NCBI GenBank assembly: GCA_944371605.1
Contig: CALVXU010000019.1
Location: forward strand, 20,832-84,831
DNA: 64,000 bases
Direction: 5' to 3'
Origin: an uncultured Bacilli bacterium
GTDB lineage: Bacteria > Bacillota_I > Bacilli_A > RFN20 > CAG-288
The notes under the pieces were generated by a model, which saw only the letters and a list, made by a program, of their open reading frames with translations, was not told the DNA's origin and did not search any database. Of the stretch, positions 5,673 through 40,780 are shown piece by piece. Positions within the stretch are counted from its first letter, which is position 1. Each line of letters begins with the position of its first letter. The position numbers and the translations under genes are program-made.

Positions 5673-8600
5673 ATGAGGAAAAAAGTTTTGCTGTCGGTTT
5701 GTCCGCCTCTTCTTTTATCTCTCAGCATCCTTGGCACAGGTTTTGCCCTAGGAGCTAATGAGGATTCTTCAACATCAACAGGCGAAGAAGAAAATAAAGA
5801 ACCGATCAAAGCTACAATTGCAGATATTTATGAAAACACCCGTCCTGATTATGGCGAGATTTTCGATTACGATTCAGAATATGTCCCATCTGATCCACCG
5901 GATGTCAACAAAGATATCACCCTTACATTAGATTCTAGATCACCTGTCAAATTCAAAAACGGTTCTAATACTCTTGTTAAGAAGCCGACAGAATATTTGA
6001 CAGAAGATGATTTTGATTTAGATGGTATAACAGGTGGTAGAAAATTAGCTGGTATTGCTAATGTCACTGAAGAAGGTATCGGTTCTGGAGTTGCGTTAGA
6101 CTCTTATACAGTCCCATTTGAAAACGCGACTATTCTTCCATATTTCTCTGCTGCTGAAGGCTTCACTTCTATCGATATAGCTAGCGGATCATATAGTCAC
6201 AACATTAATACTGATGGACTCAGTTGGAGTGGTATCACCACAGAGAGAACCACAATCACTAGAAATGTTGTGGTGCCCGGAGGCAGTGATAATTATCCAG
6301 CTATTGGTGCGACTATCGATATCAGCGGAATAGTTGATGCTGGAGATGCGTTTAGAATCGATAATGATGCCGCTGATGTTAATGTCAATGATAAAGAGAA
6401 TGAAACTTTCGCTGTCTATGAATTCAATTATAATTTCTATAACTTTGGTGAAAGTGATCTACATTTAGAATACTATCAAATTTCCAATTCTTCTGAATAT
6501 AAAAATGGCAGCACTGATTATGAAAATCATTATCGTATTGACGTGATTTTAAAACCTGGTGAAGGTTTCTCAACAATGGGTCAATATAAGTTGAAAGACA
6601 ATAACAATTTCTTGACCTATGTCGTTGTTGACAGAACTGTAGAAGACTTTAATTTAGGGTTAGCTATCGAAGCTAAGAAGACTGATTTAGAAGAGCCATC
6701 TACTATCAGTCCTGAGAAACCTAAAGAATATGCTCCTATCAACCTCAATTTACCTGATGGCATCACTTTAAAAGACGATAGTTATGGACAAGGCGTTATC
6801 GGTGAGCCTATCATTCCTCCGACTGACGAACAATTGAACAATACCACAGGTAGAACCATCGAAGGTTGGTATATCGACGGTGATGAACATACCATCATTG
6901 ATGGCACTAGATTGCCAGAAGGTGGTGTCACTATCGCTCCTTACTTCGCTCCTCTTGAAGGACAGCAGCTAGTTCCTGGTGATTCAAAATCCTACCATGC
7001 TGATTATTATTACAATTTAGATGATGAAGCCGCTGCTGAAGAAGATGAAGATTATTATAAAGATGAAACGACCATCAAAACAAAACTCCATTTCATCAAT
7101 AATGAAAAGGGTGTTATCGTTTCTAAAACTGATGGTTTTATCAAGAATGATTTCTTTAGATTACTAACATATTGTGGAGAATCTAAAACTAATCAAGGCA
7201 TCATCGCTAACAATAAATATCGTTTCACTTACAATTTCACCAACCAAGGTAGCGAAACCATAAAATTCCACGTGATTCAAATTCAACAACAGACTGCGAT
7301 CACTGAAGAAGAGGGTGCTGTCATCAGCGAAACAATCACTTTAGAGCCACAACAAAGCAAACAAATTGTTCTAGAGATTGTTTTAACTAATGATAACAAA
7401 AATGCTATGACTGGCTTTGTCATGGAAGATGATGTTTCAGCTTTTGAAATGGCGATGACAATGAACAAGCAAAATCTTACTGCTCCGACGATGTCCAATG
7501 TCACTTTAGTCAATTCTCCAATAACTTTCGCTAACGGAACTAATACTATTTCTAAAGAATTAGGTAAGACTTTAACCTTAGCTGATTTTGATACATCTTC
7601 TATCGCTGATAGTCGCACATTGCTCGGTGTAGCCGAAGTCACAGCTGACGGATATGTCAATCAGACATCTTTAGAAAATGGTGGATCATATGCTTTATCC
7701 AGTAAAGAAGTATCAATAATGCCTTACTTTTCTGAAGCTTCCGGACTCACTAGAGTGGTTGCTGCTGGCGCTAATCATGGCTTTAATTTAGATGGTGTTC
7801 CTGGCACATTAAACGATGACTTATTTGCCACTAATGATGAAGCTTATGCTGATATCTCTTTCTCTTCCAACAAAGTGATTTCTGCTGGCGAAGATAGCTA
7901 TGCACAATTAGGTTTCATAGGCGGAATCAATAAGAAGATAACCACCGGTGACGGAATGAGATGGGATTTTAAAGCCAATGGTGTTAACTCCAGCTCTTCT
8001 GCTGAAGCCGTTTATGAATTCCACTATATCTTTGAAAATATGGGAGATGAAGATTTGCATTTAGATTTCTATCAAATCTCTGCTTCTTCCGAATATAAAG
8101 AGAATAATAAAGCCTATGAAAGCCGCTATCGCATCGATATCGATTTAGCACCTGGTGAAAGCATGACTGCTTTAGGCCAATATAAATTAGGTAGTAATAA
8201 TAACTTCCTATCTTTCGCCATCGCTGATCAAGATATGAACAGCATGTCATTAGGTATTTCTATCACAGCTAAAAAGACTGATTTAAGTGAACCGACCACT
8301 GTTTCTGAACCTGAAGATGAAGAACCAGTCGATCCAGAACCCATTGAAGAACTTGTAAAATTTAATTTGCCTTCTGGTATCACAATCAAAGATACTTATA
8401 CAGCTGGAAATGCTGGAGATAAGTTAATAGTTCCTACAGCTGATCAAATCGAAAACACCACTGGTAGAACTATCGAAGGCTGGTTTATCGATGATGCTGA
8501 CGCTGATATAGTGACTGATTCAACCACTATTCCTGAAGCCGGTGTCACCATCGCACCTTATTTCGCACCTATCAATGATTACAATAAGCTTTGGCTTTGT

Positions 8601-9104
8601 TCTGGAAGTTGGAATGGCAAACCGAATGATTCTAATTATACAGGTATCGATATCGATAGTTTTACACAAAATCCTCATACTGAGGAGGGGGTGACTAATA
8701 CAGACAGACAAAAAATAGTCAGAGGTAAAAATGGTTTTGCTGAATTAGGCGTAGATCTCGAATATACTGGCGGAACTATTAATGCTGGAAACTACTTTAG
8801 ATGCGACAGCAAATACTTACCATCTAACATGACTGCTGGCACTCATAAATTTTCTCTTAATTTTGAAAATAAAGGTACTGCTGAAATCGACTTTACACTC
8901 TATTTGATCAACAGCGGACACGATAAAAATAGTGCAAGTAACAATAGCTTTGTTCTCAAATTAGCTCCAGGAGAATCAACCACCATCTCTATTTCACCGA
9001 CATATGCTGGTAATAATGGAAATTGCTTGCTCTTATTTGAAGCTAATTCCGCATGCTCTGACTTTAATTTAGGCGTCGCTATGTCCGTAAAATATGGTGC
9101 CTAA
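5673..9104 (+). CDS. large secreted repeat protein (1143 aa) with tandem ~390-aa modules, each ending in a Listeria-Bacteroides (Flg_new)-like repeat
   Basis: AAGGAGG ribosome-binding site at 5660-5666 and N-terminal signal peptide (MRKKVLLSVCPPLLLSLSILGTGFALGANE). Two near-collinear repeats (YEFNYNFYNFGESDLHLEYYQIS...TGRTIEGWYIDGD...GVTIAPYFAP and YEFHYIFENMGDEDLHLDFYQIS...TGRTIEGWFIDDADAD...GVTIAPYFAP) plus a truncated third copy at the C-terminus. No C-terminal anchor. Confidence 0.8.
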   Translation: MRKKVLLSVCPPLLLSLSILGTGFALGANEDSSTSTGEEENKEPIKATIADIYENTRPDYGEIFDYDSEYVPSDPPDVNKDITLTLDSRSPVKFKNGSNTLVKKPTEYLTEDDFDLDGITGGRKLAGIANVTEEGIGSGVALDSYTVPFENATILPYFSAAEGFTSIDIASGSYSHNINTDGLSWSGITTERTTITRNVVVPGGSDNYPAIGATIDISGIVDAGDAFRIDNDAADVNVNDKENETFAVYEFNYNFYNFGESDLHLEYYQISNSSEYKNGSTDYENHYRIDVILKPGEGFSTMGQYKLKDNNNFLTYVVVDRTVEDFNLGLAIEAKKTDLEEPSTISPEKPKEYAPINLNLPDGITLKDDSYGQGVIGEPIIPPTDEQLNNTTGRTIEGWYIDGDEHTIIDGTRLPEGGVTIAPYFAPLEGQQLVPGDSKSYHADYYYNLDDEAAAEEDEDYYKDETTIKTKLHFINNEKGVIVSKTDGFIKNDFFRLLTYCGESKTNQGIIANNKYRFTYNFTNQGSETIKFHVIQIQQQTAITEEEGAVISETITLEPQQSKQIVLEIVLTNDNKNAMTGFVMEDDVSAFEMAMTMNKQNLTAPTMSNVTLVNSPITFANGTNTISKELGKTLTLADFDTSSIADSRTLLGVAEVTADGYVNQTSLENGGSYALSSKEVSIMPYFSEASGLTRVVAAGANHGFNLDGVPGTLNDDLFATNDEAYADISFSSNKVISAGEDSYAQLGFIGGINKKITTGDGMRWDFKANGVNSSSSAEAVYEFHYIFENMGDEDLHLDFYQISASSEYKENNKAYESRYRIDIDLAPGESMTALGQYKLGSNNNFLSFAIADQDMNSMSLGISITAKKTDLSEPTTVSEPEDEEPVDPEPIEELVKFNLPSGITIKDTYTAGNAGDKLIVPTADQIENTTGRTIEGWFIDDADADIVTDSTTIPEAGVTIAPYFAPINDYNKLWLCSGSWNGKPNDSNYTGIDIDSFTQNPHTEEGVTNTDRQKIVRGKNGFAELGVDLEYTGGTINAGNYFRCDSKYLPSNMTAGTHKFSLNFENKGTAEIDFTLYLINSGHDKNSASNNSFVLKLAPGESTTISISPTYAGNNGNCLLLFEANSACSDFNLGVAMSVKYGA

Positions 9105-9115
9105 CAGGAGGAAAT

Positions 9116-9655
9116 ATGAGTAATACATTTAGAAATAAAAAAGTAGGGTCTTATTTCGGTGCTTTCTTCGCACTATTAGTCATCGCCTTAGCCATCTATT
9201 ATTTCATCGCAATCGTTCCATTAGCTACAGTTGAAGGAGCTGCTCTTTATAATATTTTGGCTCCTTGGCAGCTCTATACCATCTTCGCCTTATTATTAGC
9301 TGGTGGTGTCCTTTATCTGGTCTCTTTCTTCTTTAATTTAGACAAATTAGGTGCTGGCGTCATGGGTACTTTATGCTTTGTTTCCTTCATTCTTTATATA
9401 ATACCTGTCTTAGCTTATCCGATAAGTCAAATGATGGTCTATCCTATCGACCAATTGTTCCAAATCCCTCATTTAATAACCGTTTTAATAATCCCTATCG
9501 GCGCATTACTTCTAGCTATCATTTGCAACGTCTTAGCTTATTGTCCATTAGTTAAAAGAAATGATACTATCACTTCTGACTATCTCTATAAAATTTTAAC
9601 TGAAGGTTTTGATTTCATCACTCTTAACAAGGAGGCCACACATGAAGAAAAATAA
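9116..9655 (+). CDS. polytopic membrane protein (179 aa, 4-5 TM helices), hypothetical
   Basis: Strong ribosome-binding site (CAGGAGG) 7 nt upstream. Hydrophobic segments run throughout. It lies between the repeat-protein gene and the GH3 gene and overlaps the next gene start. Confidence 0.65.
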   Translation: MSNTFRNKKVGSYFGAFFALLVIALAIYYFIAIVPLATVEGAALYNILAPWQLYTIFALLLAGGVLYLVSFFFNLDKLGAGVMGTLCFVSFILYIIPVLAYPISQMMVYPIDQLFQIPHLITVLIIPIGALLLAIICNVLAYCPLVKRNDTITSDYLYKILTEGFDFITLNKEATHEEK

Positions 9656-12600
9656 TAGAAAACTTTGGAGAGCTTCGACCATCACTTTCAACGTCTGCTT
9701 AGCCGTCGGTGGTTTGGCTTATCTTTTTTCCGCTTTGACAAAACAATATCCTGATATCGCCGGATACGTTTCTAGTTTCTTAAAAGATTCAGGATATACT
9801 GAAACAATCACCACTGGTAAAGAACCGGTCAGATTTAAAACGTGGTATTCTTCTATCGAAGATGTTTTAAACGGTAATGACGATGTCGGCAAAGCCGCTG
9901 AATCCGAAGGTGCTGTTCTTCTAAAGAATGATAATAGTGCTCTGCCTTTAAGCACTTCTGATGATAAGGTTTCTTTGTTTGGAGTCACTGCTTATCAACC
10001 TATTTATTCATTGGATGGCGCTGGTGAAGTTCAAATCAACGCTGATAGACAACAATATTTCTATGATGAGATGGAAGCTGCTGGTCTAACAATGAACAAA
10101 GAATTAGCAGATTGGTATAACAGTGATGATGGCCGAGCATATTGGCATGCTATTCCAAAATATTCTGGTGGTGGAAACAGCCAAAATATGACTTTAAATG
10201 GTGCTAGTTGGGATACTTTACCATCATCTAAAACCGCTAGCGGATATAACACTGCTGTATTTGTTGTCGGTCGTATCACTAATGAAGGTATCGATGTCAT
10301 GCCTTCTAATAATGTCGGTGGTGCACGAGATAGAGATTTCTTAAAATTCACCAATAATGAATTATCAGTTTTACAAGGTTTAAAAGAAGCTAAAGATGCT
10401 GGAACCTTTGATAAGATCGTTGTCTTGATCAATTCTGCCACTGGAATTATGGAAGATTTGCCGACTCTCTTTGATAACTATGGCGTTGATGCTGCTATGT
10501 GGGTGGGTTTGCCAGGCACCTCTGGCATCGAAGCTGTAGCTGATTTATTAGTTGGAAAATCATCTCCTTCTGGTGGTCTATCAGATGCTTGGTACACTTC
10601 CAGAGATGCTCATCCGACCACTCCTTACTATGGAAATGGATCAAACTTATTGATTCAAGAAGATATCTATTATGGTTATAGATATGCTGAGACTAGATAT
10701 GAAGATAGAGTCTTAGGAACAGGCAGCACCGATTCCTATATTTATGACGATAATATCTCTTATCCTTTTGGATATGGTCTATCTTACAGTGAATTCTCAT
10801 ACACTTTCGATAGTCTCGAAATCGATAATGATCCTTTGAAAAACTATTATGATAACACCTATAACGAAGTTGGTGTTGAAGATGAAGAGAAAGCTGGAAA
10901 ACGTCATGAAATCATGATGATTGATGATCCTAACAGACGTAAAGAAGGAGATGATTACATCGCTAATGTCACTGTCACTAACACTGGTGATATGGCTGCT
11001 AAGCAAACAGTTGAAATTTACCTTTCTAAACCATATACAGAGACTGATAAACAACATGGCGTCGAAGATGCCTCTGTCGAATTAGTCGGCTATGGTAAAA
11101 CAGATAAACTTGAACCGGGAACTTCACAAACTTTACAGATCAGAATAGATGCCAACAAATACTTCGCTTCCTACGATGATTCTGTTAAAAATTACACTGT
11201 TGAACCCGGAACATATTATTTGGTCGCTGCCACAAACTCGCATGAAGCTGTTAACAGCCTTTTAAAAGCTAAGGCTGAAGATGGTGTTCAAGTAGATCAA
11301 GGCAAAATGGATGATGAATATGGTGCTGGTGATGCTGATAATGTTCAATCCGTCAATGTCACTAACGAATATTCTGAAAACTATAAATATTGGACTAAAG
11401 GTGGCAATGAAGTGACTAATCTCTTCGACTTTGCTGATCCTAATAAAGTCGGTGATGAGAGTTCACACGTCACTTATATGTCTCGTTCAAATTGGACACA
11501 AACCGCTGATCAAGCTAAAAATCAATCTGTCACTGTCAGCGGCGATATGGGATTCTTAGGTCAGACTAATGGCGGAAGTAATTTCAGTGTTGAAAACGCT
11601 CAAAAATACTATCCAGAAGCAGTCGCTTCCTTCGAAGATAAATATCCGACCTTCAGAGATGAAGATGCTCAAGCTACTATGACACTAGCCGAAATGATCG
11701 GTGTTGAATATGATACTAAACGCGGCGCAACCGAAGAAGATGTTCAAAAATGGGAAGACTTCTTAAATCAGCTCTCTTGGAGTGAATTAGCTACTCTCAC
11801 TGGAACTGGTAGAAGAATGACCGCCGCTATTGAGAGCATCGGTAAACCACAGACAAATGATGTCAACGCTTCTAACGCTATCTCTTGGCATTTCAACATG
11901 GGCGTCGATAGTAATGAGGCCAATGATACCGTAGGTTTTGGCGTCCGTTTCGATCCTGATAATGCTAGAAAATATTATCCTACCGGTTATCCATGCGAAG
12001 GCATCATCGCTTCAACTTTCAATAATGAACTCGCATATGCTATCGGTCAAGCTATCGGCGAAGATGGTTTATGGTCTGGTGCTGCTGGCTTATATGGTTT
12101 CGGTTTAGGCTTACATAGAAATCCATACCATGGTAGAACTGGTGAATACTACTCGGAAGATCCTTTCTTAACCGGTATGATCGGTGGATATTCATCATTA
12201 GGTGCTCAGTCTAAAGGCTTATATGTCTACAATAAACACTTTGTCTTGAATGACCAAGAACAGAATAGAATTAGTTATAATACTTGGTTAAATGAACAAT
12301 CTTTCCGTGAGATTTATTTGAGACCATTCGAAATCGCTATCGAAATCGGTGACGCTATGAATGTTATGAATTCCTTCAATCATATCGGCACTGCTTGGTC
12401 TGGAAACTGCTATAACTTAATGACCGCTTGGTTAAGAGGCGAAGCTGGTATGGCCGGATTTGCTGTCACCGACTGGTATAAATCTGGTGGTATGAATATG
12501 ACTTATGGTATCTTAGCTGGAACTGATTTGCCTGATGGTACTGACGACACTACTATTGAAAATAATGGACCTGCCAAAGGCAATACTGGATTCTATGCTC

Positions 12601-12830
12601 AAGCTGTAAGACAATCAGCTAAGAGAATCCTCTACGTTGTCGCTAATTCCAACGCCATGAACTTCATCGGTGATGACACTAGAATCGTCATTCATGAGCC
12701 TAATTGGTATGCTTGGAGGGATAACATCCAATATGTTGGCTTTGGCTTAATCGGTGCTAGCGCCTTATTCATGATTGCTGCTGGCCTCTACACTTTCGTC
12801 TTCAAAAGAGATGAGACTGTCAATAACTAA
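9642..12830 (+). CDS. glycoside hydrolase family 3 (beta-glucosidase-like) with reversed domain order, N-terminal signal-anchor and C-terminal TM helix
   Basis: Start taken at the ATG 9642, preceded by AAGGAGG at 9629-9635 (ORF track starts at 9609). The first half carries GH3 domain-2 and FN3 motifs (AVLLKNDNSALPL, VGLPGTSG..AVADLLVGKSSPSGGLSDAW, YPFGYGLSYSEF, VTVTNTGDMAAKQTVEIYLSKP). The second half carries domain-1 motifs (GRTGEYYSEDPFL, KHFVLND, REIYLRPFEIAI, GFAVTDW nucleophile region). It ends with a hydrophobic helix then KRDETVNN. Confidence 0.85.
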   Translation: MKKNNRKLWRASTITFNVCLAVGGLAYLFSALTKQYPDIAGYVSSFLKDSGYTETITTGKEPVRFKTWYSSIEDVLNGNDDVGKAAESEGAVLLKNDNSALPLSTSDDKVSLFGVTAYQPIYSLDGAGEVQINADRQQYFYDEMEAAGLTMNKELADWYNSDDGRAYWHAIPKYSGGGNSQNMTLNGASWDTLPSSKTASGYNTAVFVVGRITNEGIDVMPSNNVGGARDRDFLKFTNNELSVLQGLKEAKDAGTFDKIVVLINSATGIMEDLPTLFDNYGVDAAMWVGLPGTSGIEAVADLLVGKSSPSGGLSDAWYTSRDAHPTTPYYGNGSNLLIQEDIYYGYRYAETRYEDRVLGTGSTDSYIYDDNISYPFGYGLSYSEFSYTFDSLEIDNDPLKNYYDNTYNEVGVEDEEKAGKRHEIMMIDDPNRRKEGDDYIANVTVTNTGDMAAKQTVEIYLSKPYTETDKQHGVEDASVELVGYGKTDKLEPGTSQTLQIRIDANKYFASYDDSVKNYTVEPGTYYLVAATNSHEAVNSLLKAKAEDGVQVDQGKMDDEYGAGDADNVQSVNVTNEYSENYKYWTKGGNEVTNLFDFADPNKVGDESSHVTYMSRSNWTQTADQAKNQSVTVSGDMGFLGQTNGGSNFSVENAQKYYPEAVASFEDKYPTFRDEDAQATMTLAEMIGVEYDTKRGATEEDVQKWEDFLNQLSWSELATLTGTGRRMTAAIESIGKPQTNDVNASNAISWHFNMGVDSNEANDTVGFGVRFDPDNARKYYPTGYPCEGIIASTFNNELAYAIGQAIGEDGLWSGAAGLYGFGLGLHRNPYHGRTGEYYSEDPFLTGMIGGYSSLGAQSKGLYVYNKHFVLNDQEQNRISYNTWLNEQSFREIYLRPFEIAIEIGDAMNVMNSFNHIGTAWSGNCYNLMTAWLRGEAGMAGFAVTDWYKSGGMNMTYGILAGTDLPDGTDDTTIENNGPAKGNTGFYAQAVRQSAKRILYVVANSNAMNFIGDDTRIVIHEPNWYAWRDNIQYVGFGLIGASALFMIAAGLYTFVFKRDETVNN

Positions 12831-15799: not shown

Positions 15800-16099
15800 A
15801 TGAAAAAAAAGACTTTTATTATTCTTGAAAGCGTATTGATAGGCGTTTCCTTATTATGTTTTATTGCCTTTGGTATTTTAAAAGGAATGAACAATAGTTC
15901 AGCTTGGACCAATATCGCTTTAGCTTTCGGTATAATCTCGCTAGTAGTGTTTTTATTTTTATTAATCATGCGGATCTTCACCAATAGTAAACTTCCAGAA
16001 GTAAAACAAGGTATCATTTGTCCGCGATGCCATTATCTCAACGAAGAAGGCGCTGATATTTGTAAACAATGTGGGGCAAATTTAAAACAAAATGAATGA
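15800..16099 (+). CDS. small membrane protein with C-terminal zinc-ribbon (99 aa)
   Basis: Two hydrophobic helices then CPRCHYLNEEGADICKQCGANL (CxxC...CxxC). Its stop overlaps the start of the YfhO-like gene by 8 nt, which suggests translational coupling. Confidence 0.55.
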   Translation: MKKKTFIILESVLIGVSLLCFIAFGILKGMNNSSAWTNIALAFGIISLVVFLFLLIMRIFTNSKLPEVKQGIICPRCHYLNEEGADICKQCGANLKQNE

Positions 16100-18881
16100 A
16101 GTGGTCTATGAAATATTAACAGATGATTTATTAGATCATAAAAAACATGTTCTTAAAATAATCAAAGAAATCTGTTATCCTCTTCTTTCCTTACTCATGC
16201 CTTTATCGCTCTGTTATCTCCTATTTAAAAATAATGATTTCTATCCTTTTGCGTCAGATGGTCACACTATTTTGATGTATGATGCAGCTGGGCAATATAT
16301 TGCTTATTTCCGTTATTTTAAAATGTTATTGGAACAAGGCGACAGTTTTCTTTACACTCTATCTAAAACATTAGGCGGAAATTTTCTTTCACTTTATAGC
16401 TATTATCTAGCCTCGCCGTTAAATTTTTTGATAATTTTCGTATCTGATAACCAAATACCTTTATTTCTTCTTATCATTTCAATAGTCAAAATAGCTTTAG
16501 CAAGTCTCACGATGTATACGATGTTTAGATTCGTGAAAAAGAAAGCTTCTTTTTCATATTTAATATTCGCTATTTCTTATGGTTTATCATCATATTTCTT
16601 CGTTTACATCTTTTCTCCAATGTGGTTAGATGGTGCTTTTATTTTACCTTTGGTTGTCTTAGGTATTCATCAGCTCATACGAAACGAAAACATTTTAGTA
16701 TATCCCTTATCTCTTAGTTACGCACTATTATCGTCTTGGTATATCGGATTTATGATTTGTGTATTTTCAGTGCTATATTTCTTTACTGATTTTTTGTCTA
16801 TTCGAAATAAAAAGTTTCCGAACACCATTGTTATTTATAATAAAAAAATCATCCTACGCTTTTTTGTATTATCTCTATTAGGAGGTCTATTAGCCGCTCC
16901 TGTTTGGTTCTCAGCGTTTTCGCATTTCACTGGTACAAAAGCAGGTGGCATCTCTATTTCATCTGATCAAGGCCTTGCGATGAATATTTCTTCAATCATC
17001 TCTTCTTTTTTGACCAATGGTTATATATCATCGTCTTACATCACTCAGTATTATGGATATATGGCGGTGTTTACATCTATCCCAGCTTTGACTCTAGCGA
17101 TAATCTACTTCTTTTCACAAAAATATGATTTAAGAATCCGAATATCAAGATTCATATTGATCGCTTTTTATATTGTGTGCACTGCTTTTACTTTAACAAA
17201 CACTTTGCTCCATGGAGGATCAACACCGACCTGGTTTCCTACAAGATATGCTTTTATCATCGCCTTTTTAATTTGCTTATATGGTGAAGAAGGCTTTAAA
17301 GGAATTGATAAAACACCTTTGATAAGTTATTTAGTCCCTATTGTTATAGGGGTGATCAGCTGGAGTTTAGTCACTTATTTAGCAAACTCTAATGGTGATA
17401 CATATAGTATTTCAATCGCAGGATTAATCTCATTTATCTTAACGATTCTTATCGCTTTCCTCTGTTCACTATGTTTTAAATATCATGCTAAACACGCGTC
17501 AACCATTTTCAGCCTTTCTTCAGTTTTGATACTCGGGCTCGCTGGATATTCAATCTATCAAGGAGAAGACAATGTCTTAAAAACCAATATTAATAGTGAA
17601 GAATATTTAAGCCAAAGCGAATACTTAGAAGATGAAAGATTTCAATCTGATGTAGACGCATTACGAGCTTATGATAACTCTTTATATCGAATGGAAAACA
17701 CATTTTTAAGGCCCCATTCATTTAATGAAGCTGACAATGATCCCATGTTTTATGGTTTTAATGGCATCTCACATTTCTCATCTGTTGAAAAAAAAGATGT
17801 GATGTCTTATCTAGAAAAAATCGGCTTTCATTATAACGGTTATCACGAAGGGTATGATGGCGGCTCCACAGTCAGTATGAATTCATATTTGGGTATCAAA
17901 TATCTCATTGATGATAACAAGCAAAATGTGATCCATTTCTTACCTAGTTTAACAAAGTTAAATATACCTTCAAACAATGATATGAGTTTCTATGAGAATC
18001 CTTATACACTTCCGCTAGCATTCACCGTGATGCCATCAGACTACACTTATATAAGTGAGGGATATACCAAAGATGACGGCGAGATTTATTGGTATGATCA
18101 TTTTGAATATCAAAATGAAATCTTCAAAAATATGACTGATAAAGTTGTTGATGCAAATGGTGACAAAAAAGATATATTTAAAAAGATAACTCCAAATATT
18201 AATCTATCGTCATCTTTAGAAGCCACAGAAAAAGATGGTGCTTTATATTTAACAGGAGATAAAGGAACTATCACTTATACATTCATAGTCCCCAAAGAAG
18301 CTGAAAACAATAATCTTTATTTCATGTTCAAAGAAAGAGATTCCGATTTGAGAATCACTTTTGATTGGAGATATATCGAGATGATGTCGTATTGGCATGC
18401 AGGAATCAGAGGATTCACAGGCTCAGTAAATAGCACACATAACATTCGAGTCTCAATACCTTTTGCTACCAACAATTATCGATTACAAGCAGAAATCTAC
18501 TATGAAGATTTAGATGTTTTGCAAGAATATATAAATGCGATTAAAGAAGATACTATCTCTGATTTAAAAATCCAATCTTCACCATCTACATATCAAATAA
18601 CTGGTAAATTAAATCTCATCAATGATAATCGTTATCTTCTATTCACTTTACCTTTGGAAGAGGGTATGAGCATCTACATCGATGGTAAAAAGATGGACAC
18701 CGTTAAACGATTCAATATCTTTTCAGCATGTGATATTTCTTCTCTGACAAAAGGTGAGCACATAATCACCTTAAATTTCGTAGACTATGGCTTAGATATA
18801 GGTGTGGTCTTGGCAGCTTTAAGTTTAGTTGGCTTAGTCAACTATTCCATTTTCTTCTTTATCAAAAGAAGAAGAATTTAA
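16092..18881 (+). CDS. YfhO-family polytopic membrane protein (putative GT-C glycosyltransferase), 929 aa
   Basis: About 13 TM helices in the first ~470 aa, then a large soluble C-terminal domain. The N-terminal GHTILMYDAAGQYIAYFRYFK matches the conserved YfhO N-terminal motif (..S.D...QYI.F..YLK). Confidence 0.65.
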   Translation: MNEVVYEILTDDLLDHKKHVLKIIKEICYPLLSLLMPLSLCYLLFKNNDFYPFASDGHTILMYDAAGQYIAYFRYFKMLLEQGDSFLYTLSKTLGGNFLSLYSYYLASPLNFLIIFVSDNQIPLFLLIISIVKIALASLTMYTMFRFVKKKASFSYLIFAISYGLSSYFFVYIFSPMWLDGAFILPLVVLGIHQLIRNENILVYPLSLSYALLSSWYIGFMICVFSVLYFFTDFLSIRNKKFPNTIVIYNKKIILRFFVLSLLGGLLAAPVWFSAFSHFTGTKAGGISISSDQGLAMNISSIISSFLTNGYISSSYITQYYGYMAVFTSIPALTLAIIYFFSQKYDLRIRISRFILIAFYIVCTAFTLTNTLLHGGSTPTWFPTRYAFIIAFLICLYGEEGFKGIDKTPLISYLVPIVIGVISWSLVTYLANSNGDTYSISIAGLISFILTILIAFLCSLCFKYHAKHASTIFSLSSVLILGLAGYSIYQGEDNVLKTNINSEEYLSQSEYLEDERFQSDVDALRAYDNSLYRMENTFLRPHSFNEADNDPMFYGFNGISHFSSVEKKDVMSYLEKIGFHYNGYHEGYDGGSTVSMNSYLGIKYLIDDNKQNVIHFLPSLTKLNIPSNNDMSFYENPYTLPLAFTVMPSDYTYISEGYTKDDGEIYWYDHFEYQNEIFKNMTDKVVDANGDKKDIFKKITPNINLSSSLEATEKDGALYLTGDKGTITYTFIVPKEAENNNLYFMFKERDSDLRITFDWRYIEMMSYWHAGIRGFTGSVNSTHNIRVSIPFATNNYRLQAEIYYEDLDVLQEYINAIKEDTISDLKIQSSPSTYQITGKLNLINDNRYLLFTLPLEEGMSIYIDGKKMDTVKRFNIFSACDISSLTKGEHIITLNFVDYGLDIGVVLAALSLVGLVNYSIFFFIKRRRI

Positions 18882-19850
18882 TTCTTTTTTATCATTCTGT
18901 TTGACCACTCTATCTATGATGAATAAAGGTTGGTTTCTCGTGTTGATCAACACATTATGTAAGTATAAACCGATGATTCCGATGATAAAAATGACGACAG
19001 ATAGAGCGAAGAAAACACTGCTTAGTATAAAGAAAATTGTCAGATGTTGATTATAAGAAAAAGCATCGCCAGTATTGATGACACAATAAGAAATCAAAAG
19101 ACTGATAAAAACTAAAAAAGTCACTATAGAAGAAATCGCTCCAACTTTTAATATCACAAACAGTGGTTGAGATGTCCCGCTAGAAATGATATTAAAAGCA
19201 TGATTGAACAATTTATTGACATTATATTTAGAAGTCCCTGCGGCACGTTTTTGTCTAACAAAATCAACATAACATGTTTTAAAACCGACAAAAGCTGCAT
19301 CATTCAAAAATAGACGATCTTTATTCGGTAATTCATTAAATAATTTAACTACTCTTCTAGAAACCCCTCTAAAAGCGTTCACATTTTCAGGTATGACTTT
19401 CTTTCCTTCAATCGCATTCACAAATTTATAGAACAGTCCTGCTGTCGTTCTCTTAAACCATGTGTCTGACTTGCGATTTGCTCTATGCGGTGAGACGACA
19501 TCATATCCTTCAGAAAATTTTTCAGTGATTGTTTTAATAAGTTCAACTGGATCTTGCAAATCAGCATCCATAACAATAGCAAAATCACTATCACAAACAC
19601 TTAGTCCAGCATAAATGGCTGGATTTTGACCAAAATTACGCGCTAAGTTAACAATCTCTATATCATCTCGTTTCTGATAAAGCTCGTTCATCACCTCGAG
19701 TGTTTTATCCTTAGAGCCATCATTCACTAAAATAAAATTAAAATTGTAATCTTTAATCTCTTTTATGATTGGATCAACATTTTGAAAATATAAAGGGAGA
19801 GCTTCTTCTTCGTTATAGCACGGCAAGATTATTGAAATGCTTTTCATCAA
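18834..19850 (-). CDS. GT2-family glycosyltransferase, CsbB/GtrB-like polyprenyl-phosphate sugar synthase
   Basis: ISIILPCYNEEEAL, LVNDGSKDKT and the DAD motif (VMDADLQDP) match GT2 family proteins. There are two C-terminal TM helices as in GtrB/CsbB. The 3' end overlaps the YfhO-like gene convergently by 48 nt. Confidence 0.8.
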   Translation of the reverse strand: MMKSISIILPCYNEEEALPLYFQNVDPIIKEIKDYNFNFILVNDGSKDKTLEVMNELYQKRDDIEIVNLARNFGQNPAIYAGLSVCDSDFAIVMDADLQDPVELIKTITEKFSEGYDVVSPHRANRKSDTWFKRTTAGLFYKFVNAIEGKKVIPENVNAFRGVSRRVVKLFNELPNKDRLFLNDAAFVGFKTCYVDFVRQKRAAGTSKYNVNKLFNHAFNIISSGTSQPLFVILKVGAISSIVTFLVFISLLISYCVINTGDAFSYNQHLTIFFILSSVFFALSVVIFIIGIIGLYLHNVLINTRNQPLFIIDRVVKQNDKKELNSSSFDKEENGIVD

Positions 19851-20048: not shown

Positions 20049-22400
20049 ATGACAACAGAGCAACAGATTAAAAAGTTAAGTATTGAAGAAAAATCCGCTC
20101 TTATGAGAGGTATCGGAAATTGGAAAAGCAAAAATAATAAAACAATTGACCTGTGCTCTTTAACTTTTTCTGATGGCCCTATCGGCATCAGAAAAGAATT
20201 AGAAAACTCTAATTATCTACAACAATCTATAATAGCCGTTTGTTTTCCATCAGGCGCTCTCTTAGGTCAAACATTTAATCCGAATATCGTTAATTTGGTT
20301 GCTGCTGAGATTGGCAAAGAGGCCAGATATTACGATATCGATATTCTTCTAGGTCCAGCGATGAATATAAAGCGAAACCCTTTAGGCGGAAGAAATTTCG
20401 AATATTATAGTGAAGATCCTTATCTCACTGCCGAATTAGCTAAAGCTTATGTCATCGGTTTAGAAGGCCAAGGAGTAGGCGCTTGTTTAAAACATTTTTG
20501 TGCTTATTCGCAAGAAACAAATAGAATGACAATAAACGCTGTCATAGATGATAGAACTCTACACGAAATATACTTATCAGCATTTGAAGACGTCATTTTA
20601 GCGACAAATCCGGCATCGATTATGACCAGTTACAACATGGTGAACGGCGTGCATATGTCTGAAAATAAAGCTTTGTTATCTGATTATCTAAGAAAAAAGC
20701 TGAACTATAACGGTTTGATCATCTCTGATTGGTATGCAGTTTCAAATCCTGTCAATTCTCTATTGAATGGTCTTGATTTAGAAATGCCGCAATCAAATGA
20801 AATCAATTATGAAAAAGTATATGAAGCAATAACTAAAGATAAAAGTGTTGAAATATCGTGTGACCAAGCCATTTTATATTTAAAACAAACAAGTGACAAG
20901 TTCCATAAAGAGCATAAACATGTTGATTTAAATTTTGAAGATGGGCACGAAATAGCTAAGCAAGCAGCGTTAGAAGGAATAGTACTTTTAAAAAATGATA
21001 ATCACATCTTACCGATTCATGATTTAAAAGATGTTCTGCTCATCGGTGAATTAGCTACAACTCCACATATCCAGGGAGGAGGAAGTTCGCACATCAACAC
21101 TTATAAATCTACTTCTTTCTTAGAAATGACTAGTGATTTAGATTACATAAGAGGATATAACTTACAAAACGAAAACGATAACACTCATTTACAACAAGCA
21201 ATCGATAAAGCAAAGCACTATAAATCCGTAATTGTTTTTCTTGGATATAATGATTTAGAAGAATGTGAAAGCATTGATAAAACCGATATTTCACTGCCTA
21301 AAAATCAATTAAAACTGATTGAAGAACTGACAAAACTAGACATAAAAATCATTGTCATAATAGAAACAGGTTCTGTATGTGAGATTCCTTTTATCAATGA
21401 GGTAGATGCTGTTTTTTACACTTCTTTAGGAGGTGAAGCTGTCAATGATGCTTTATATGATCTAATCTTAGGAAATAAAAATCCGTGTGGACATCTCGCT
21501 GAAACATTTCCTCTAAAGCTCAAAGATAATCCCTCTTATGAATATTTTCCTGGAGATGGCAACAACGTTCTTTATAAAGAAGCTTTATATGTTGGTTATC
21601 GTTATTATCAAACCTTTGATGTTCCCGTATTATTTCCGTTCGGCTATGGTTTGTCTTATTCAAATTTCCAACTTAAAGCTTGCTCTTTACTTGAAGATGA
21701 AGATATCACAGTCAAAGTGATAATAAAAAACACCAGTTCTATTCCAGGAAAAGCCTGCGTGCAAATTTATATGAGCAAACCAAATGATCATATTTATAAT
21801 CCAAAAAAAGAACTGATAGCTTTTTCTAAACCTTTTTTACAAGCATATGAAGAAAAAGAGATTATCTTGCCGATAGACAAAAGAAAACTATCTTATTTTG
21901 ATATCGAATCAAACAGATATCTACCACTATATGGAGAATACACATTTACAATAGGATTTGATTCTTTGGATGATAGTTTTAAATTAAAATATTCATTCAA
22001 TAATTCACATATTACTACAAAAACATCTTTATATAATATAAATAATATACATAAAATCAATGACGAGCTATTTCAAACTTTATTCAATAAAGAAATGCCT
22101 ATAGTTAAAAAAGCTAAACCTTTCGACATAGAAACGACTTTAACAGAAGCCAAGAGCAAAGGCTCCAAGGGTGCTAGACTATTTATTGCTATAATCAGTA
22201 AAATCAAATCAATCAAAGAAAACAAAATCTATTATAATACCATCCTTAATTCACCTATCAGAGTTCTTATTTATAACATGCCTGTATTAGCTAAAAATAA
22301 TTCAAAAGTCTTCTTGAACGTTTTAAATGATCATCACTATATTTGGAATTTGCTCAAGCTTCTTTTATCAATGGCTAAATATGCTTCAAAATCATTATAA
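20049..22400 (+). CDS. cytoplasmic glycoside hydrolase family 3 beta-glucosidase, canonical domain order, with ~130-aa C-terminal tail
   Basis: GGRNFEYYSEDPYL, KHFCAYSQE, SDW (LIISDWYAV), IVLLKNDNHILPI, FPFGYGLSYSNF and KACVQIYMSKP are all present. There is no signal peptide. Confidence 0.9.
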   Translation: MTTEQQIKKLSIEEKSALMRGIGNWKSKNNKTIDLCSLTFSDGPIGIRKELENSNYLQQSIIAVCFPSGALLGQTFNPNIVNLVAAEIGKEARYYDIDILLGPAMNIKRNPLGGRNFEYYSEDPYLTAELAKAYVIGLEGQGVGACLKHFCAYSQETNRMTINAVIDDRTLHEIYLSAFEDVILATNPASIMTSYNMVNGVHMSENKALLSDYLRKKLNYNGLIISDWYAVSNPVNSLLNGLDLEMPQSNEINYEKVYEAITKDKSVEISCDQAILYLKQTSDKFHKEHKHVDLNFEDGHEIAKQAALEGIVLLKNDNHILPIHDLKDVLLIGELATTPHIQGGGSSHINTYKSTSFLEMTSDLDYIRGYNLQNENDNTHLQQAIDKAKHYKSVIVFLGYNDLEECESIDKTDISLPKNQLKLIEELTKLDIKIIVIIETGSVCEIPFINEVDAVFYTSLGGEAVNDALYDLILGNKNPCGHLAETFPLKLKDNPSYEYFPGDGNNVLYKEALYVGYRYYQTFDVPVLFPFGYGLSYSNFQLKACSLLEDEDITVKVIIKNTSSIPGKACVQIYMSKPNDHIYNPKKELIAFSKPFLQAYEEKEIILPIDKRKLSYFDIESNRYLPLYGEYTFTIGFDSLDDSFKLKYSFNNSHITTKTSLYNINNIHKINDELFQTLFNKEMPIVKKAKPFDIETTLTEAKSKGSKGARLFIAIISKIKSIKENKIYYNTILNSPIRVLIYNMPVLAKNNSKVFLNVLNDHHYIWNLLKLLLSMAKYASKSL

Positions 22401-36311: not shown

Positions 36312-39300
36312 TTATTTAGCTTTCTTCTTTTTAAGAAAGAAAATAGTTAAGAACGCAGCACCGCCAACAACGATGACACCGCCGACAGCGATCAAAGCGA
36401 TATGCCATGCTTGTAAACCGCCAGAAGGAGTTGATGGATCAACAGGTGTGGTTCCAGGAGCGATGACTTGTCTGTTCAAGCTGATAGAGGCAAAGCCATC
36501 AGTGAATTGAACGTTATGGATTGTTAAATATCCGCTAGCGCTATCATAAGACATATTCTCAGCCGCTTGACCGTTGACAGAAGCTGTGATAGTAGAAGCA
36601 TCAAGACCAGTACCGACATAAAGAGTTAAAGAAGCGACGCCATCATAATCTAAATCAGCACCATCAGCATCGGTTAAGTTCACATCATAGGAATAATTTC
36701 CAGCAGAGATATTAGTCGGCGATAAGACAAAGTCAGAATCATCAGGGATGTCACTAGCGGAGACAAAGGCGTTGAGAGAATTCAAGTGAACGATGACCGA
36801 GATGGAGTTATAAGCGGTATCAGTGATAGTGATGTTCAAACGTCCATCATTTTCTTCAAGGATAGTATCAGTCAAAGTTAAAGTGGCTTGATATAAATCA
36901 TCACTTCCTTCAACTTTTACAGGGATTGCAGCACGACCAGCATAACTGATAGCGCTGTCTCCACCTTTAGTTGTAACCACTAATTGTTGTCTACCAGTAG
37001 AAGAGGTTTGAGACACAGCAGAGACGAATTCAGGAACCGTTTTATCGATGATAAGTTTATATGAACTGGTTTGAGTAGTGTTAGTTCCTCTCAATGTGAA
37101 GTTATAAGATAAGGTATATTCACCTTCATCTAAAGAACTGATATCGATGCAAGCATAACCATGGTGCATCAAATATGACGTAGTACCAGGGACAAATAAT
37201 GATTTAGCAAGACCCATACCAGTAGCTGAAGCCCAACCACTGCTATATTCATATAAGTCACCGATTTGACCTGATTTATTAACACCACTGCCGGAGATGC
37301 TCCAGGTGGCTTCAGAGACAGATCTATTCACATAGAAGACACTGACCAAATGATCAGAAACACCATTAGCACCAGCCTTCAAATACAAGTCTCCATTTTC
37401 ATCATAACGAGCGATATCTAAATATTTAGTACCATTAGGATAAGCAGATGTTGATAAATCACCGATTCTGCCGATTTCAGAACTTGTAGGAGTAGAACCA
37501 GTAGCGGCGAGAGTAGATCCAGTATAAGCGTTTCTCTTAGCAGCTGTTCCGCTTAAATTTTTGATATAAGCATCAGCTAATTCAGAGTTATAAAGATGTC
37601 CTTTTTCTTTTTCAAATTGGAATGGTTCAACCGCTTTACCAACCGTGTAATCACCATAGAAGCCGAGATAAGGCATTGTCAAAGTATGAGAAACACCATT
37701 TTCATTATCTTCAGAAGTGGTGCTATCCTTTTCAGTTAAGTATAAATAACCTTCGACATAGCTGCCGCCAGCTGATTTGAAATATTGATTGAAGTATTCT
37801 CTTAAAGTTCCGTGGAAATCAGGAACATCTTTTTCACCATCGCCATCAACATCAGCATCAAAAACCTTATCTAATTCGATATTATCGATACGAACTCTAA
37901 CTTTGCCAGTAGCAGTAGAATTAGCAGCGACTTCAACATCACCTTTTCCTTCAGCCCAATTAGCATCGGGAATAGTTAAAGCTTGATCATTGATAGAAGT
38001 AGTGATCGAGCCGGGTAAATTTTCAGCGACATCAGCGACAGTAGTCGGATCATTTTCTTTACTATTTTCGTATTCGGAAGTGGTTAATTGGATTCTCAAA
38101 TCTGGAATCATCAAACTGAGAGAAGGAGTATAAGTTCTAGTTTTAGAGCTATCATTATGGATGGTATAACTGAATTCGATATATGCTTCTTCATCAGTAG
38201 CTAAATCAGTATTCAATGTACCTCTGTTCTTCAATTCAACTTTTGAAACTTCCGTGCTTTCAGTCTTCAAAGCATCAGAGCTAGATACAGCCTCGGAATC
38301 AGATACAGAAGGAGAAGTGACATAAGCGTTATTTCCTAACATATCAGCGACATTGATGATGCCAGAGCCTTGAAGTCTGATCGAGCCGATATTATTAGCA
38401 GTACTATCTACTAATTGATTAGCAGTAGACATAGCTATGTTAGAAATCTTTTTCTTATAAGCAGCGAATGCTTCATCATCCTCTAGTGCTAAACTGCCGC
38501 CATTTTCAGGTTTCTTTTCACTTAAAACAGAAGCTAAAGCGCCAGAAAAATTAGGAGAAGCCATCGAAGTTCCTGACATATTATCGTAGCCAGCTAACTT
38601 AGAAGTGGCACCGACGACAGAAGCATCGATAGCGCCGATGACTTGTCCGCCTGGAGCGGAGATAGTCGGAGAGATATCTAAGTTATAAGAAGGTCCATCA
38701 GAGGAGAAGGAAGAAGTGATGTTACCATCAGGAGCGACAACAGCTTGATTAGTGGATAAAGTCAATTCACCAACAGTATTATCTTCGCCAAAGGTTGGAC
38801 CCATATTTTGGAAGACCAAAATAACAGGGATTTCTGGGTTATAAGAACCATAATCGAAATTGAAATTGAAAGTGACAGAGGCATCATTATTGATGACGAT
38901 CAACGCATCAGCACCAGCTGCTTGAGCAGCAAGAGTTTTTTCTGTAAAGGTTGTTTCACCACGGTCGATAACAGCGATGACTTTTGAATCTTTACCTAAT
39001 TGTTCTTTCAATCCAGCAAAACTCGAGATCGCAGTTTCGTATTCTTGATTATATGAATCATAGAAGGATTGATAATCGCTATCAGCACCGACACCACCGA
39101 TACGGACATAATTAAATGTTCCTTCTTGTTGATCACCTAACAATTGAGTGAAAGGATGTTCGATGTTGAATTCGATTGTAGATCCTTCACGGTTGATGAC
39201 TTGATCGTAGTATGAAACAGCTGTGCCATTGACGAGTAAAATTGATTCATAGAACGCTTTGTCAGGGTTAGAAGAAGCGACGATATTGACATTTTCATCA

Positions 39301-40475
39301 TTTAAAGTTTCACCGCCCAAATAAGAAGACTCAACAGTATCTGTGGTCCAATCAGAATATCCTTGATTACCGGAGAAACTCGATTTACCAGAGTTTCCAG
39401 CAGCATAGTTGACGATCACACCAGCCTCAATAGCCCCTTGAATCGCTTGATATGTGAGAGATGAAGCATCATCATCGTAATCGGTCAAATCAGTTCCTAA
39501 AGAAAGGTTTATGACATCGAGTCCGAGCTTAGCAGCATCATTGATAGCAGCGATGATATCAGAATCACCAGCTCCTCCATCTCCATCAGGGAAAACTTTC
39601 AAAATCGCTAATTGAGCATTAGGAGCGATACCAGTGAAGTCATCACCATTAGCAGCTGCTAGCGAAGCGACGTGAGTTCCGTGATCAGCAGTAGATGGAT
39701 TAACATTATTATCATTTCCTTGATAATCGTATGCGAAAGCGATCTTTTTGTTGATTCTAACACCTTCTTGTCCAACAAATTCAGGATCTCTCTTAGCAGC
39801 GTTTACAACGCTTTCAGAAAGAACATCTTCGACATTTGTGGTGTCTTTGAAAGCAGCTGCGTTATATTCGTCAGCAGTAGCTTCTAACTCACTTCTTTGA
39901 CTGGTTCCCTCGACCTGATTTAAGAACAAACCAGTATCGATAATACCGATAGTGATTCCCTTACCCAATTGAGCTTCACCTTCAGTACCAGTGACATCTT
40001 TGATCGCTTTAGAGATATCTGTAGATGTTGCAGACATCGTCTCTGCAGAATAGTTGGCTAATTTATCTCTCTTGATATCTTCAGCTGAAGAAGCGAAAGT
40101 ACTGGCACCGCTAGAAAGGGTCGAAGCTGTAGGACGAGCATAGGTGTGTGAAACCTCAACACTAGCAACACCAGGGATTTCAGCAACATAATCTTTCAAA
40201 GAAGAATCCATGGTGATAGAGAAGCCATTTAAAACTTCATCATAAACATGATCGATATGATAGAGTTCTTCTGGTAAGCGATAAGCGAGTTCATTTAACA
40301 CTTTATTTCTAGCAACATCTGCTTTGCTAGATTTCACGCCCTGATCAATAGTGACGATAAAAGTTTCCTCTCCCGCTTTTTCTACTCCAGGCATATTGAC
40401 TGGAGAAGCAGAGGCTAAAAGGCCACCAAAGCCAAGGCAAGTTAATAATGAAACTAAAGAAAATAGTTTTTTCAT
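36312..40475 (-). CDS. membrane-anchored subtilisin-like serine protease (S8 family, cell-envelope proteinase-like), 1388 aa
   Basis: Start taken at MKKLFSLVSLL (ATG at 40475, GGAGG ribosome-binding site 10 nt upstream). Catalytic triad contexts IGIIDTG, HGTHVAS and GTSMASP. There is a large insert between His and Ser, as in lactocepin/C5a peptidase. The C-terminus is a hydrophobic helix plus KKKKAK, not LPXTG. Confidence 0.9.
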   Translation of the reverse strand: MKKLFSLVSLLTCLGFGGLLASASPVNMPGVEKAGEETFIVTIDQGVKSSKADVARNKVLNELAYRLPEELYHIDHVYDEVLNGFSITMDSSLKDYVAEIPGVASVEVSHTYARPTASTLSSGASTFASSAEDIKRDKLANYSAETMSATSTDISKAIKDVTGTEGEAQLGKGITIGIIDTGLFLNQVEGTSQRSELEATADEYNAAAFKDTTNVEDVLSESVVNAAKRDPEFVGQEGVRINKKIAFAYDYQGNDNNVNPSTADHGTHVASLAAANGDDFTGIAPNAQLAILKVFPDGDGGAGDSDIIAAINDAAKLGLDVINLSLGTDLTDYDDDASSLTYQAIQGAIEAGVIVNYAAGNSGKSSFSGNQGYSDWTTDTVESSYLGGETLNDENVNIVASSNPDKAFYESILLVNGTAVSYYDQVINREGSTIEFNIEHPFTQLLGDQQEGTFNYVRIGGVGADSDYQSFYDSYNQEYETAISSFAGLKEQLGKDSKVIAVIDRGETTFTEKTLAAQAAGADALIVINNDASVTFNFNFDYGSYNPEIPVILVFQNMGPTFGEDNTVGELTLSTNQAVVAPDGNITSSFSSDGPSYNLDISPTISAPGGQVIGAIDASVVGATSKLAGYDNMSGTSMASPNFSGALASVLSEKKPENGGSLALEDDEAFAAYKKKISNIAMSTANQLVDSTANNIGSIRLQGSGIINVADMLGNNAYVTSPSVSDSEAVSSSDALKTESTEVSKVELKNRGTLNTDLATDEEAYIEFSYTIHNDSSKTRTYTPSLSLMIPDLRIQLTTSEYENSKENDPTTVADVAENLPGSITTSINDQALTIPDANWAEGKGDVEVAANSTATGKVRVRIDNIELDKVFDADVDGDGEKDVPDFHGTLREYFNQYFKSAGGSYVEGYLYLTEKDSTTSEDNENGVSHTLTMPYLGFYGDYTVGKAVEPFQFEKEKGHLYNSELADAYIKNLSGTAAKRNAYTGSTLAATGSTPTSSEIGRIGDLSTSAYPNGTKYLDIARYDENGDLYLKAGANGVSDHLVSVFYVNRSVSEATWSISGSGVNKSGQIGDLYEYSSGWASATGMGLAKSLFVPGTTSYLMHHGYACIDISSLDEGEYTLSYNFTLRGTNTTQTSSYKLIIDKTVPEFVSAVSQTSSTGRQQLVVTTKGGDSAISYAGRAAIPVKVEGSDDLYQATLTLTDTILEENDGRLNITITDTAYNSISVIVHLNSLNAFVSASDIPDDSDFVLSPTNISAGNYSYDVNLTDADGADLDYDGVASLTLYVGTGLDASTITASVNGQAAENMSYDSASGYLTIHNVQFTDGFASISLNRQVIAPGTTPVDPSTPSGGLQAWHIALIAVGGVIVVGGAAFLTIFFLKKKKAK

Positions 40476-40780
40476 CAAAATAACCTCCGAAAAATATGCA
40501 AAATCAATTTTATTGAGATTGTTTATCAATGCAAGTGAAAAATCGATTAGCTTTTTTCAGGTCACATAGCTATTTCTTTGCTGTTTTTATAAATTTTGTA
40601 GTTTTCAACGCTATAAATTGTCAATAAATAATTATTCAAACCTTCGTTTGTTTTGTTTGTAAGTGCTTACATTTGAGGGTAATTTATTTTTATAATTATG
40701 TTTATATTTATAAATAATAATATCGATTGTGTTTTTTATCGATTTTCAGTTTTAAAGAAGAAGTTTATGAAAGTGCTTTC

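Follow-up and report, generated by a model that had tools for sequence, protein, structure and literature searches.

A domain-permuted family 3 glycosidase with a transmembrane helix at either end in an uncultured Bacilli bacterium

The window analysed here is a stretch of 64,000 nucleotides from an uncultured Bacilli bacterium (assembly GCA_944371605.1, contig CALVXU010000019.1, positions 20,832 to 84,831 of the forward strand); all coordinates count from its first letter. A gene on the + strand, 9642..12830, encodes a glycoside hydrolase of family 3 (GH3) in which the order of the domains is permuted and a transmembrane (TM) helix stands at either end of the chain. The enzyme is probably held on the outer face of the cytoplasmic membrane by a hairpin of its own two helices, as part of a surface unit encoded by an operon. 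The permuted order has been published before. Double anchoring is the rule in the clade of this gene, not a rarity. The proposed hairpin anchoring, a four-TM (tetraspan) partner and fused variants are new here; they were found in no paper of the searchable literature, the coverage of which excludes subscription-only papers.

Domain order, fold and active site

The GH3 reading frame is open over 9609..12830. It starts with the ATG at 9642, six bases upstream of which lies a Shine-Dalgarno sequence (AAGGAGG, 9629-9635), and its stop codon, TAA, ends at 12830; the product has 1062 residues. Three Pfam domains score above their gathering cut-offs: Glyco_hydro_3_C (PF01915; residues 92-382, 86 bits against 31), Fn3-like (PF14310; residues 456-533, 41.2 bits against 25) and the barrel domain Glyco_hydro_3 (PF00933; residues 781-951, 48.5 bits against 27). 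By the domain criteria of CAZy the product is a GH3, with barrel and sandwich both above gathering.

From its N-terminus, the chain consists of a first helix, TM1 (residues 11-34, 9672..9743), preceded by the basic stretch MKKNNRKLWR; an (alpha/beta)6 sandwich (about residues 62-390, 9825..10811); an Fn3-like domain (about residues 430-533, 10929..11240), also seen as strands in the structural model; a mostly helical, family-specific region (residues 534-700, 11241..11741); a (beta/alpha)8 barrel (about residues 701-1018, 11742..12695), delimited by PF00933 and by alignments to the structures 8IDZ, 2X40, 5WUG and 5K6L; and a second helix, TM2 (residues 1029-1053), with the tail FKRDETVNN (together 12726..12827). 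No Pfam match was found for residues 534-700. This region is some 80-90 residues longer than its counterpart in 5WUG or GlyA1 by phmmer coordinates, and Ala536, Asn538, Gly563, Arg615, Trp618 and Thr621 are conserved within it.

An AlphaFold2 model built from 43 homologues has a mean predicted local distance difference test score (pLDDT) of 90.7 and a predicted template modelling score of 0.90. It comprises a helix (residues 2-35), a strand (52-57), the three domains, an ordered 534-700 region (pLDDT 87-97), a last strand (1013-1018) and a final helix (1021-1061); the sole low-confidence part is a loop before the Fn3-like domain (406-423). In a Foldseek search of the PDB, the solved permuted GH3s rank first. 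The Paenibacillus barengoltzii beta-glucosidase 5WUG/5WVP is the best match (E 1.8e-51, 1009 columns), and GlyA1 (5K6L-5K6O) gives a TM-score of 0.77-0.80 on the target and is collinear over about 980-1000 columns. Canonical GH3s align across only about 470 columns, which is the expected outcome of circular permutation. Its domain order and fold put the enzyme in the GlyA1-type permuted subfamily (ABS-FLD-ABB).

The first-pass annotation, made from the sequence alone, had placed the catalytic barrel in the C-terminal half, behind the sandwich and the Fn3 domain, and had proposed an alignment with a paralog elsewhere in the window that it took to be canonical. Both the order and the paralog were described correctly. 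The paralog (20049..22400, +) has the barrel first (residues 64-265), then the C domain (311-537) and the Fn3-like domain (571-639), and no hydrophobic segment, TM helix or signal peptide. BLASTP aligns the two proteins in swapped high-scoring segment pairs: residues 766-963 of the permuted enzyme match 45-244 of the paralog, and 81-511 match 301-628. The KHF motif lies in the C-terminal half as claimed (residues 865-867). The nucleophile motif, given as SDW, reads TDW (943-945), which is a minor point. The paralog also carries a C-terminal extension of about 130 residues (650-783) after its Fn3-like domain, for which Pfam gives no match.

The same annotation described the reversed order as a minority trait of the family, and a structurally characterised subfamily of this kind does exist (PMC5104943, PMC11233000). 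The structure of GlyA1 established the ABS-FnIII-barrel topology in 2016, and proteins of this type were described as coming mainly from Firmicutes, but also from Actinobacteria, and from animal guts (PMC5104943). BrGH3A, of 814 residues, without a signal peptide and proposed to be intracellular, was added in 2024 (PMC11233000). Neither paper mentions TM segments, and that on GlyA1 mentions no signal peptide.

The closest known enzymes each share part of this architecture. GlyA1, from a rumen metagenome, has the same domain order; it differs in having an extra C-terminal domain and an FnIII-barrel linker about 90 residues shorter, and is 21% identical in the structural alignment. The P. barengoltzii enzyme is likewise permuted, with its barrel at chain residues 471-750, but has an extra C-terminal domain (PMC11233000) where the window enzyme has a TM helix. 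BrGH3A, from bovine rumen, is a three-domain permuted enzyme with no extra domains and the same listed set of catalytic residues (PMC11233000); unlike that shorter protein, the window enzyme has helices at both ends and most likely lies outside. Sequence similarity is highest to the canonical GH3s, among them TnBgl3B (2X40), BglPcC1 (8IDZ) and the window paralog (E 1e-61 and 2e-53). These have the same domains and catalytic machinery but in the order barrel, sandwich, Fn3.

The catalytic machinery is conserved. Asp944 (12471-12473), in the TDW motif, aligns with the GlyA1 nucleophile Asp709 and is invariant in 114 of 114 homologues. Glu215 (10284-10286), on the sandwich, is equally invariant and aligns with the SGEGYD glutamate of 2X40, which is Glu458 of TnBgl3B; its GlyA1 counterpart is Glu143 (PMC11233000). 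GlyA1 residues Lys630/His631, Arg641 and Arg597 map to Lys865/His866, Arg876 and Arg832, each conserved in all 114. Trp710 maps to Trp945, which is conserved but, alone among the mapped residues, not invariant. Of the nine residues given for subsite -1 in GlyA1 and BrGH3A, seven map and are conserved. On this basis the protein looks like an active retaining glycosidase. It would be an exo-acting enzyme of the GlyA1 type, with Asp944 on the C-terminal barrel as putative nucleophile and Glu215 on the N-terminal sandwich as putative acid/base.

Subsite -1 is altered at two places. Phe912 (12375-12377), present in 112/114 homologues, replaces Tyr677 of GlyA1; the residue is Tyr in 8IDZ, 2X40, 5WUG (in the sequence TSYN) and both other GH3s of the window. 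The canonical DGP motif, kept in 5WUG, reads NAS in this clade; Asn742 is invariant and Asp740 nearly so (Asp740-Val-Asn742, 11859..11867), and the match to GlyA1 Asp532 is uncertain. The glycone preference is not readable from sequence. Among NCBIfam equivalog models, including those for exo-alpha-(1->6)-L-arabinopyranosidase, BglX and Xyl3A, the best match is NF041610, with 203 bits against a cut-off of 1300; every equivalog falls far below its cut-off, and no specific activity is assignable.

Terminal helices, topology and the permutation cut

A Kyte-Doolittle scan (19-residue window, threshold 1.6 or above) gives just two segments of TM strength in the enzyme, starting at residue 14 and at residues 1029-1037. 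The N-terminal signal-anchor-like helix and the C-terminal hydrophobic helix with charged tail, both noted in the first-pass annotation, were thus seen again by hydropathy. The combination of permutation and double anchoring, which that annotation held to be uncommon, turned out to be the norm in this clade. Both helices are present in 114 of 116 full-length homologues (36-99% identity), the two exceptions resembling truncated start calls; in 82/86 complete open reading frames (ORFs) at 80 loci of species-representative genomes; and in 121/125 standard-length representatives from an exhaustive search clustered at 50%. Their presence is not due to chance. At least 591 related loci occur in species-representative genomes, and about 95% of those checked have both helices. 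Relatives are found in Lachnospiraceae, Oscillospiraceae, Christensenellales, Gemmiger, Faecalibacterium, Anaeroplasmataceae, Acholeplasmatales, Olsenella and Thermophilibacter; the best in reference genomes are 52-55% identical to the window enzyme.

A second member of the group lies in the same window (53986..57024, +). It has 1012 residues and 29% identity to the first, with the Pfam order GH3_C (69-365), Fn3 (442-519), GH3_N (721-889) and TM peaks at residues 6 and 973; it retains both Tyr and DGP. It has no four-TM partner gene upstream. Its neighbours are 51385..53058 (-), 53229..53819 (-) and 57301..59439 (+), and the genes beside it encode a lipoprotein-type GH5, a LytTR-domain protein and a 712-residue lipoprotein with a weak Big_3 match.

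The charges around the helices are biased throughout the family. The mean net charge of the 15 flanking residues (n=114) is +3.36 before TM1 and -1.40 after it, and -0.16 before TM2 and +2.26 after it. Lys and Arg are more frequent on the terminal side of TM1 in 113/114 homologues and of TM2 in 98/114, and K/R-rich C-terminal tails occur across the family. Under the positive-inside rule, such a bias means that the two ends would be cytoplasmic and the body external. The opposite topology, with the catalytic body tethered to the inner face and the short ends outside, agrees with the lack of signal peptides in characterised permuted GH3s and with the proposal that BrGH3A is intracellular (PMC11233000). 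It is highly improbable, since it conflicts with the charge bias, the operon partners of the enzyme are a secreted protein or a lipoprotein, and extensions homologous to the secreted protein sit on the side of the GH3 body in fused relatives.

Natural fusions bear on the second helix. In 20 long representatives (1382-2342 residues), the chain runs on past TM2 through a short loop and a third TM helix into a second large region. One of these, P0320, has two complete permuted GH3 modules in the arrangement TM-GH3-TM-loop-TM-GH3-TM, and both ends of each unit must therefore lie on the same side of the membrane. Continuations of this type make TM2 a true membrane pass and not a removable sorting signal. 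The cell-surface enzyme on two TM segments proposed in the first-pass annotation fits both the positive-inside rule and these tandem fusions. The long relatives, which include P0320, P0297, P0302, P0306, P0307 and P0373, have three or four membrane passes and either one or two GH3 ectodomains or a GH3 and a large outside region; one C-terminal extension gives a weak CBM_6 match.

Gram-positive bacteria also retain glycosidases at the surface by the lipid anchors of lipoproteins or by LPXTG/sortase anchoring to the wall. The helix and tail at the C-terminus could in principle be such a sorting signal, cut by a sortase- or exosortase-like enzyme to leave the glycosidase wall-linked or released: a conserved P-x-W-x-x-x-R-D, the hydrophobic helix and the basic tail resemble the three-part layout of these signals. 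Very little weight is given to this explanation. The window enzyme has no LPXTG and matches no NCBIfam sorting-signal model at E<=0.01, the helix is an internal pass followed by another TM helix in the 20 long representatives, and members of the family are also encoded by genomes that bear the labels Anaeroplasmataceae, Acholeplasmatales and Mollicutes, which are wall-less lineages. Anchoring by the enzyme's own two TM helices, with a dedicated tetraspan partner, would presumably serve the same purpose as lipid or sortase anchoring, in that enzyme and products are kept at the surface, but by other means; lipoprotein-type GH3 and GH5 enzymes occur in the same loci.

For TM1, the alternative is a cleavable Sec signal peptide, which would leave a mature type I enzyme with the C-terminal helix as its sole anchor. 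The layout of n-region and h-region and a possible small-residue site after the helix (ALT|K) speak for cleavage and against a double anchor, and a signal at the N-terminus together with a TM helix and K-rich tail at the C-terminus is seen in other surface proteins of this organism, such as the S8 protease at 36312..40529. Cleavage is nonetheless unlikely. The hydrophobic stretch is about 22 residues long and is modelled as part of a single helix of residues 2-35; Asn17 is conserved in 110/114 homologues and there is no conserved AXA-type site; and the equivalent helix is internal both in partner-GH3 fusions and in the tandem GH3-GH3 protein. The conservation of Asn17 and the internal position of the helix in partner-GH3 fusions suggest that TM1 acts as a functional helix and not as a throw-away signal. 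Asn17 (9690-9692), in the middle of TM1, is conserved about as well as the catalytic residues; Gly24 is found in 90/114, and Trp1022 (12705-12707), interfacial and just upstream of TM2, in 111/114.

The permutation cut was located by alignment. In canonical 8IDZ and 2X40, residues 310-311 are the counterparts of residues 61-65 of the window enzyme, and the envelope of the barrel match (residues 705-963) reaches residue 306 of 8IDZ. As the alignments meet at 306 and 310-311, the new termini map to residues that are neighbours in the canonical linker between barrel and sandwich. In the AlphaFold2 model, the strands 52-57 and 1013-1018 adjoin the terminal helices. The two helices would thus leave the body side by side and could form a hairpin, and the permuted order would make double anchoring geometrically easy. 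In the arrangement inferred here, the N-terminal helix would run from inside to outside, the catalytic body of about 1000 residues would lie outside, and the C-terminal helix would return inwards, displaying the enzyme on the outer face of the cytoplasmic membrane. Because the cut falls where barrel and sandwich were once joined, the body would have its two ends at one point, and the paired helices would hold the enzyme flat on the membrane. A literature search for glycoside hydrolases with two terminal TM helices, whether of GH3 or of another family, returned nothing relevant, subscription-only papers being outside its coverage.

The four-TM partner and the secreted protein

Three genes on the + strand lie in a tight row. 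The first (5673..9104) encodes a 1143-residue protein with a signal peptide and is separated by a 12-nt gap from the second (9116..9655), which encodes the 179-residue four-TM partner; the end of the partner ORF overlaps the GH3 start by 14 nt. A scan of 5300-13600 gave 29 promoter-like sites against 28.7 in shuffled sequence and 8 terminator-like sites against 4.7 (sd 2.3), with no listed site in the junctions. Since these counts are near the shuffled expectation, the assignment of a putative operon is based on gene spacing and conservation.

The partner has four TM peaks and is modelled as four long helices (pLDDT 80). A Pfam scan of its 179 residues gave no match, and a Foldseek search with the model gave nothing significant (best E 0.37, generic tetraspans). 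Its family has at least 290 members of 133-180 residues, every supplied name of which is 'hypothetical' or 'uncharacterized'. The family is too divergent for tblastn, which recovered no homologue from the loci with the 179-residue query; homologues were recovered by position and hydropathy and by a hidden Markov model (HMM). A four-TM ORF of this type ends beside the GH3 start in 34/85 cases. Conversely, the next gene downstream of five independent partner homologues is in all five a permuted GH3 (1013-1027 residues). The family has no conserved polar residues. For this reason, and in view of the absence of a significant structural neighbour, scaffolding seems a likelier role than transport or catalysis. 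The idea that Asn17 of TM1 marks contact with the partner found no support (18/33 with a partner, 19/54 without). In Pseudoflavonifractor-like loci, a protein of 247-269 residues recurs between the canonical GH3 and four-TM partner genes (L081 6144-6911, L087 3612-4421, L088 3670-4413, L089 3653-4417); Pfam and NCBIfam give no match for it, and it may be a further member of the cassette.

The 1143-residue protein is internally duplicated (residues 90-539 against 615-1081; 38% identity, E 9e-87) and has only weak Ig-like matches in Pfam. In the eight closest loci (L001-L008), the gene just before that of the GH3 encodes a homologue. The idea that one family occupies this place throughout was rejected; other clades have a lipoprotein-type canonical GH3 (L010, L016) or a Big_2-repeat lipoprotein (L037). 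No relation was found between the 1143-residue protein and the other lipoproteins of the window.

In other organisms, each of the two neighbours also occurs joined to the GH3 in one protein. The GH3 ORF begins with the partner module in three loci (L038, L041 and L043; HMM E 1e-17 to 1e-19) and in three representatives (P0318, P0311 and P0324; E 4e-31 to 7e-11). Residues 787-1139 of the secreted protein have homologues in the C-terminal extensions of P0297, P0306 and P0307 (E 4e-10 to 1e-7). A three-part surface unit is proposed because of these Rosetta-stone fusions. The operon would co-produce the tetraspan and the large secreted beta-sandwich protein with the enzyme, and the trio would probably act as one surface unit. 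A more far-reaching idea is that the terminal helices of the GH3, the tetraspan and the secreted protein form a dedicated, membrane-integral glycosidase machine in three parts. This is a tentative proposal, and the odds are somewhat against it; it draws on the natural fusions of both neighbours, the finding of the partner family only beside this enzyme in the cases checked, and the near-invariant Asn of TM1.

Neighbourhoods, window context and significance

Within 10 kb of family members, a LytTR response regulator is present at 39/80 loci and a multi-TM kinase of the LytTR system at 31/80. A GH2 of about 640 residues is found at 38/80 loci and a GPH-family symporter at 33-34/80. The GH2s are nearest to beta-glucuronidase models, yet fall below their cut-offs; a locus of the cultured Pseudoflavonifractor sp. 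CLA-AP-H29 also has uxaC. These neighbours suggest a pathway for many members in which the anchored GH3 trims its substrate at the surface, the remaining glycoside is imported, and cleavage follows in the cytoplasm. The proposed surface unit would trim extracellular glycosides or oligosaccharides, the products of which would then be taken up. The altered subsite -1 hints at a substrate other than simple beta-glucosides, with which the glucuronidase-like GH2 and GPH neighbours agree.

The frequency of LytTR genes could also mean that the protein is mainly a membrane-bound glycan sensor, signalling through its helices to the two-component system nearby. A LytTR-domain gene adjoins the second window copy as well, and the conserved polar Asn of TM1 would agree with a sensor. 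The invariant catalytic residues argue for a working enzyme, however, and regulators are ordinary companions of sugar-utilisation loci. The neighbours of the 9642 copy are housekeeping genes and a regulator on the other strand that is of MerR type, not LytTR. The sensor hypothesis is accordingly credited with only a slight chance of being correct.

The favoured reading, an ecto-anchored permuted GH3 on a helix hairpin within an operon-encoded surface unit, is likely to hold, and besides the signal-like layout of TM1 several points weigh against it. The C-terminal tail of the window enzyme is itself charge-neutral (KR and DE), and for this end the family bias carries the argument. As Phe912 and NAS depart from characterised GH3 beta-glucosidases, the enzyme need not act on common substrates. 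The 9642 copy has no GH2 or GPH genes nearby, and the pathway that such genes suggest is a weaker inference for it. Only 40% of loci have the partner next to the GH3, nothing in its conserved residues points to a function, and the presence of Asn17 does not follow that of the partner.

Other features of the window concern the cell surface and the chromosome. A 1405-residue S8 subtilase (36312..40529, -) has PA and I9 domains, an N-terminal signal, and a C-terminal TM helix with the tail KKKKAK; many other ORFs carry lipoprotein-type signals. It seems that the source organism uses lipid or TM helices as anchors for its surface proteins. A YfhO/PgfM-like multi-TM glycosyltransferase (929 residues) and a convergent GT2 gene, with overlapping 3' ends, occupy 16092..19850, and an undecaprenyl-phosphate-translocase-like gene is found at 49698..50729. 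As a group, these genes suggest surface-polymer glycosylation. dnaN (45503..46660) and dnaA (47720..49087), both on the - strand, coincide with a minimum of cumulative GC skew at about 46-48 kb, and the window probably spans the chromosomal replication origin, the region concerned being 45503..49087 and about 49100..49700. Scans for Rfam families and for tRNAs gave no match in the window.

Among the glycosidases of gut bacteria, those of GH3 belong to the most frequent, and where such an enzyme sits determines whether the sugars go to the community or stay with the cell. Permuted GH3s characterised so far are soluble; the clade described here appears to be a large sister group which is probably surface-exposed and membrane-integral. 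It spans hundreds of species of Clostridia, Anaeroplasmataceae/Acholeplasmatales and Coriobacteriia. Cultured carriers (Pseudoflavonifractor sp. CLA-AP-H29, Thermophilibacter provencensis and Olsenella sp. SW781) make these ideas testable. The three-part machine, if it exists, would be an undescribed way of mounting a glycan-processing enzyme in the membrane of Gram-positive and wall-less gut bacteria, and might link hydrolysis at the surface with uptake or with the LytTR sensor system encoded nearby. The family exposes a gap, broad in range and open to test, in knowledge of where gut Firmicutes place their glycosidases.

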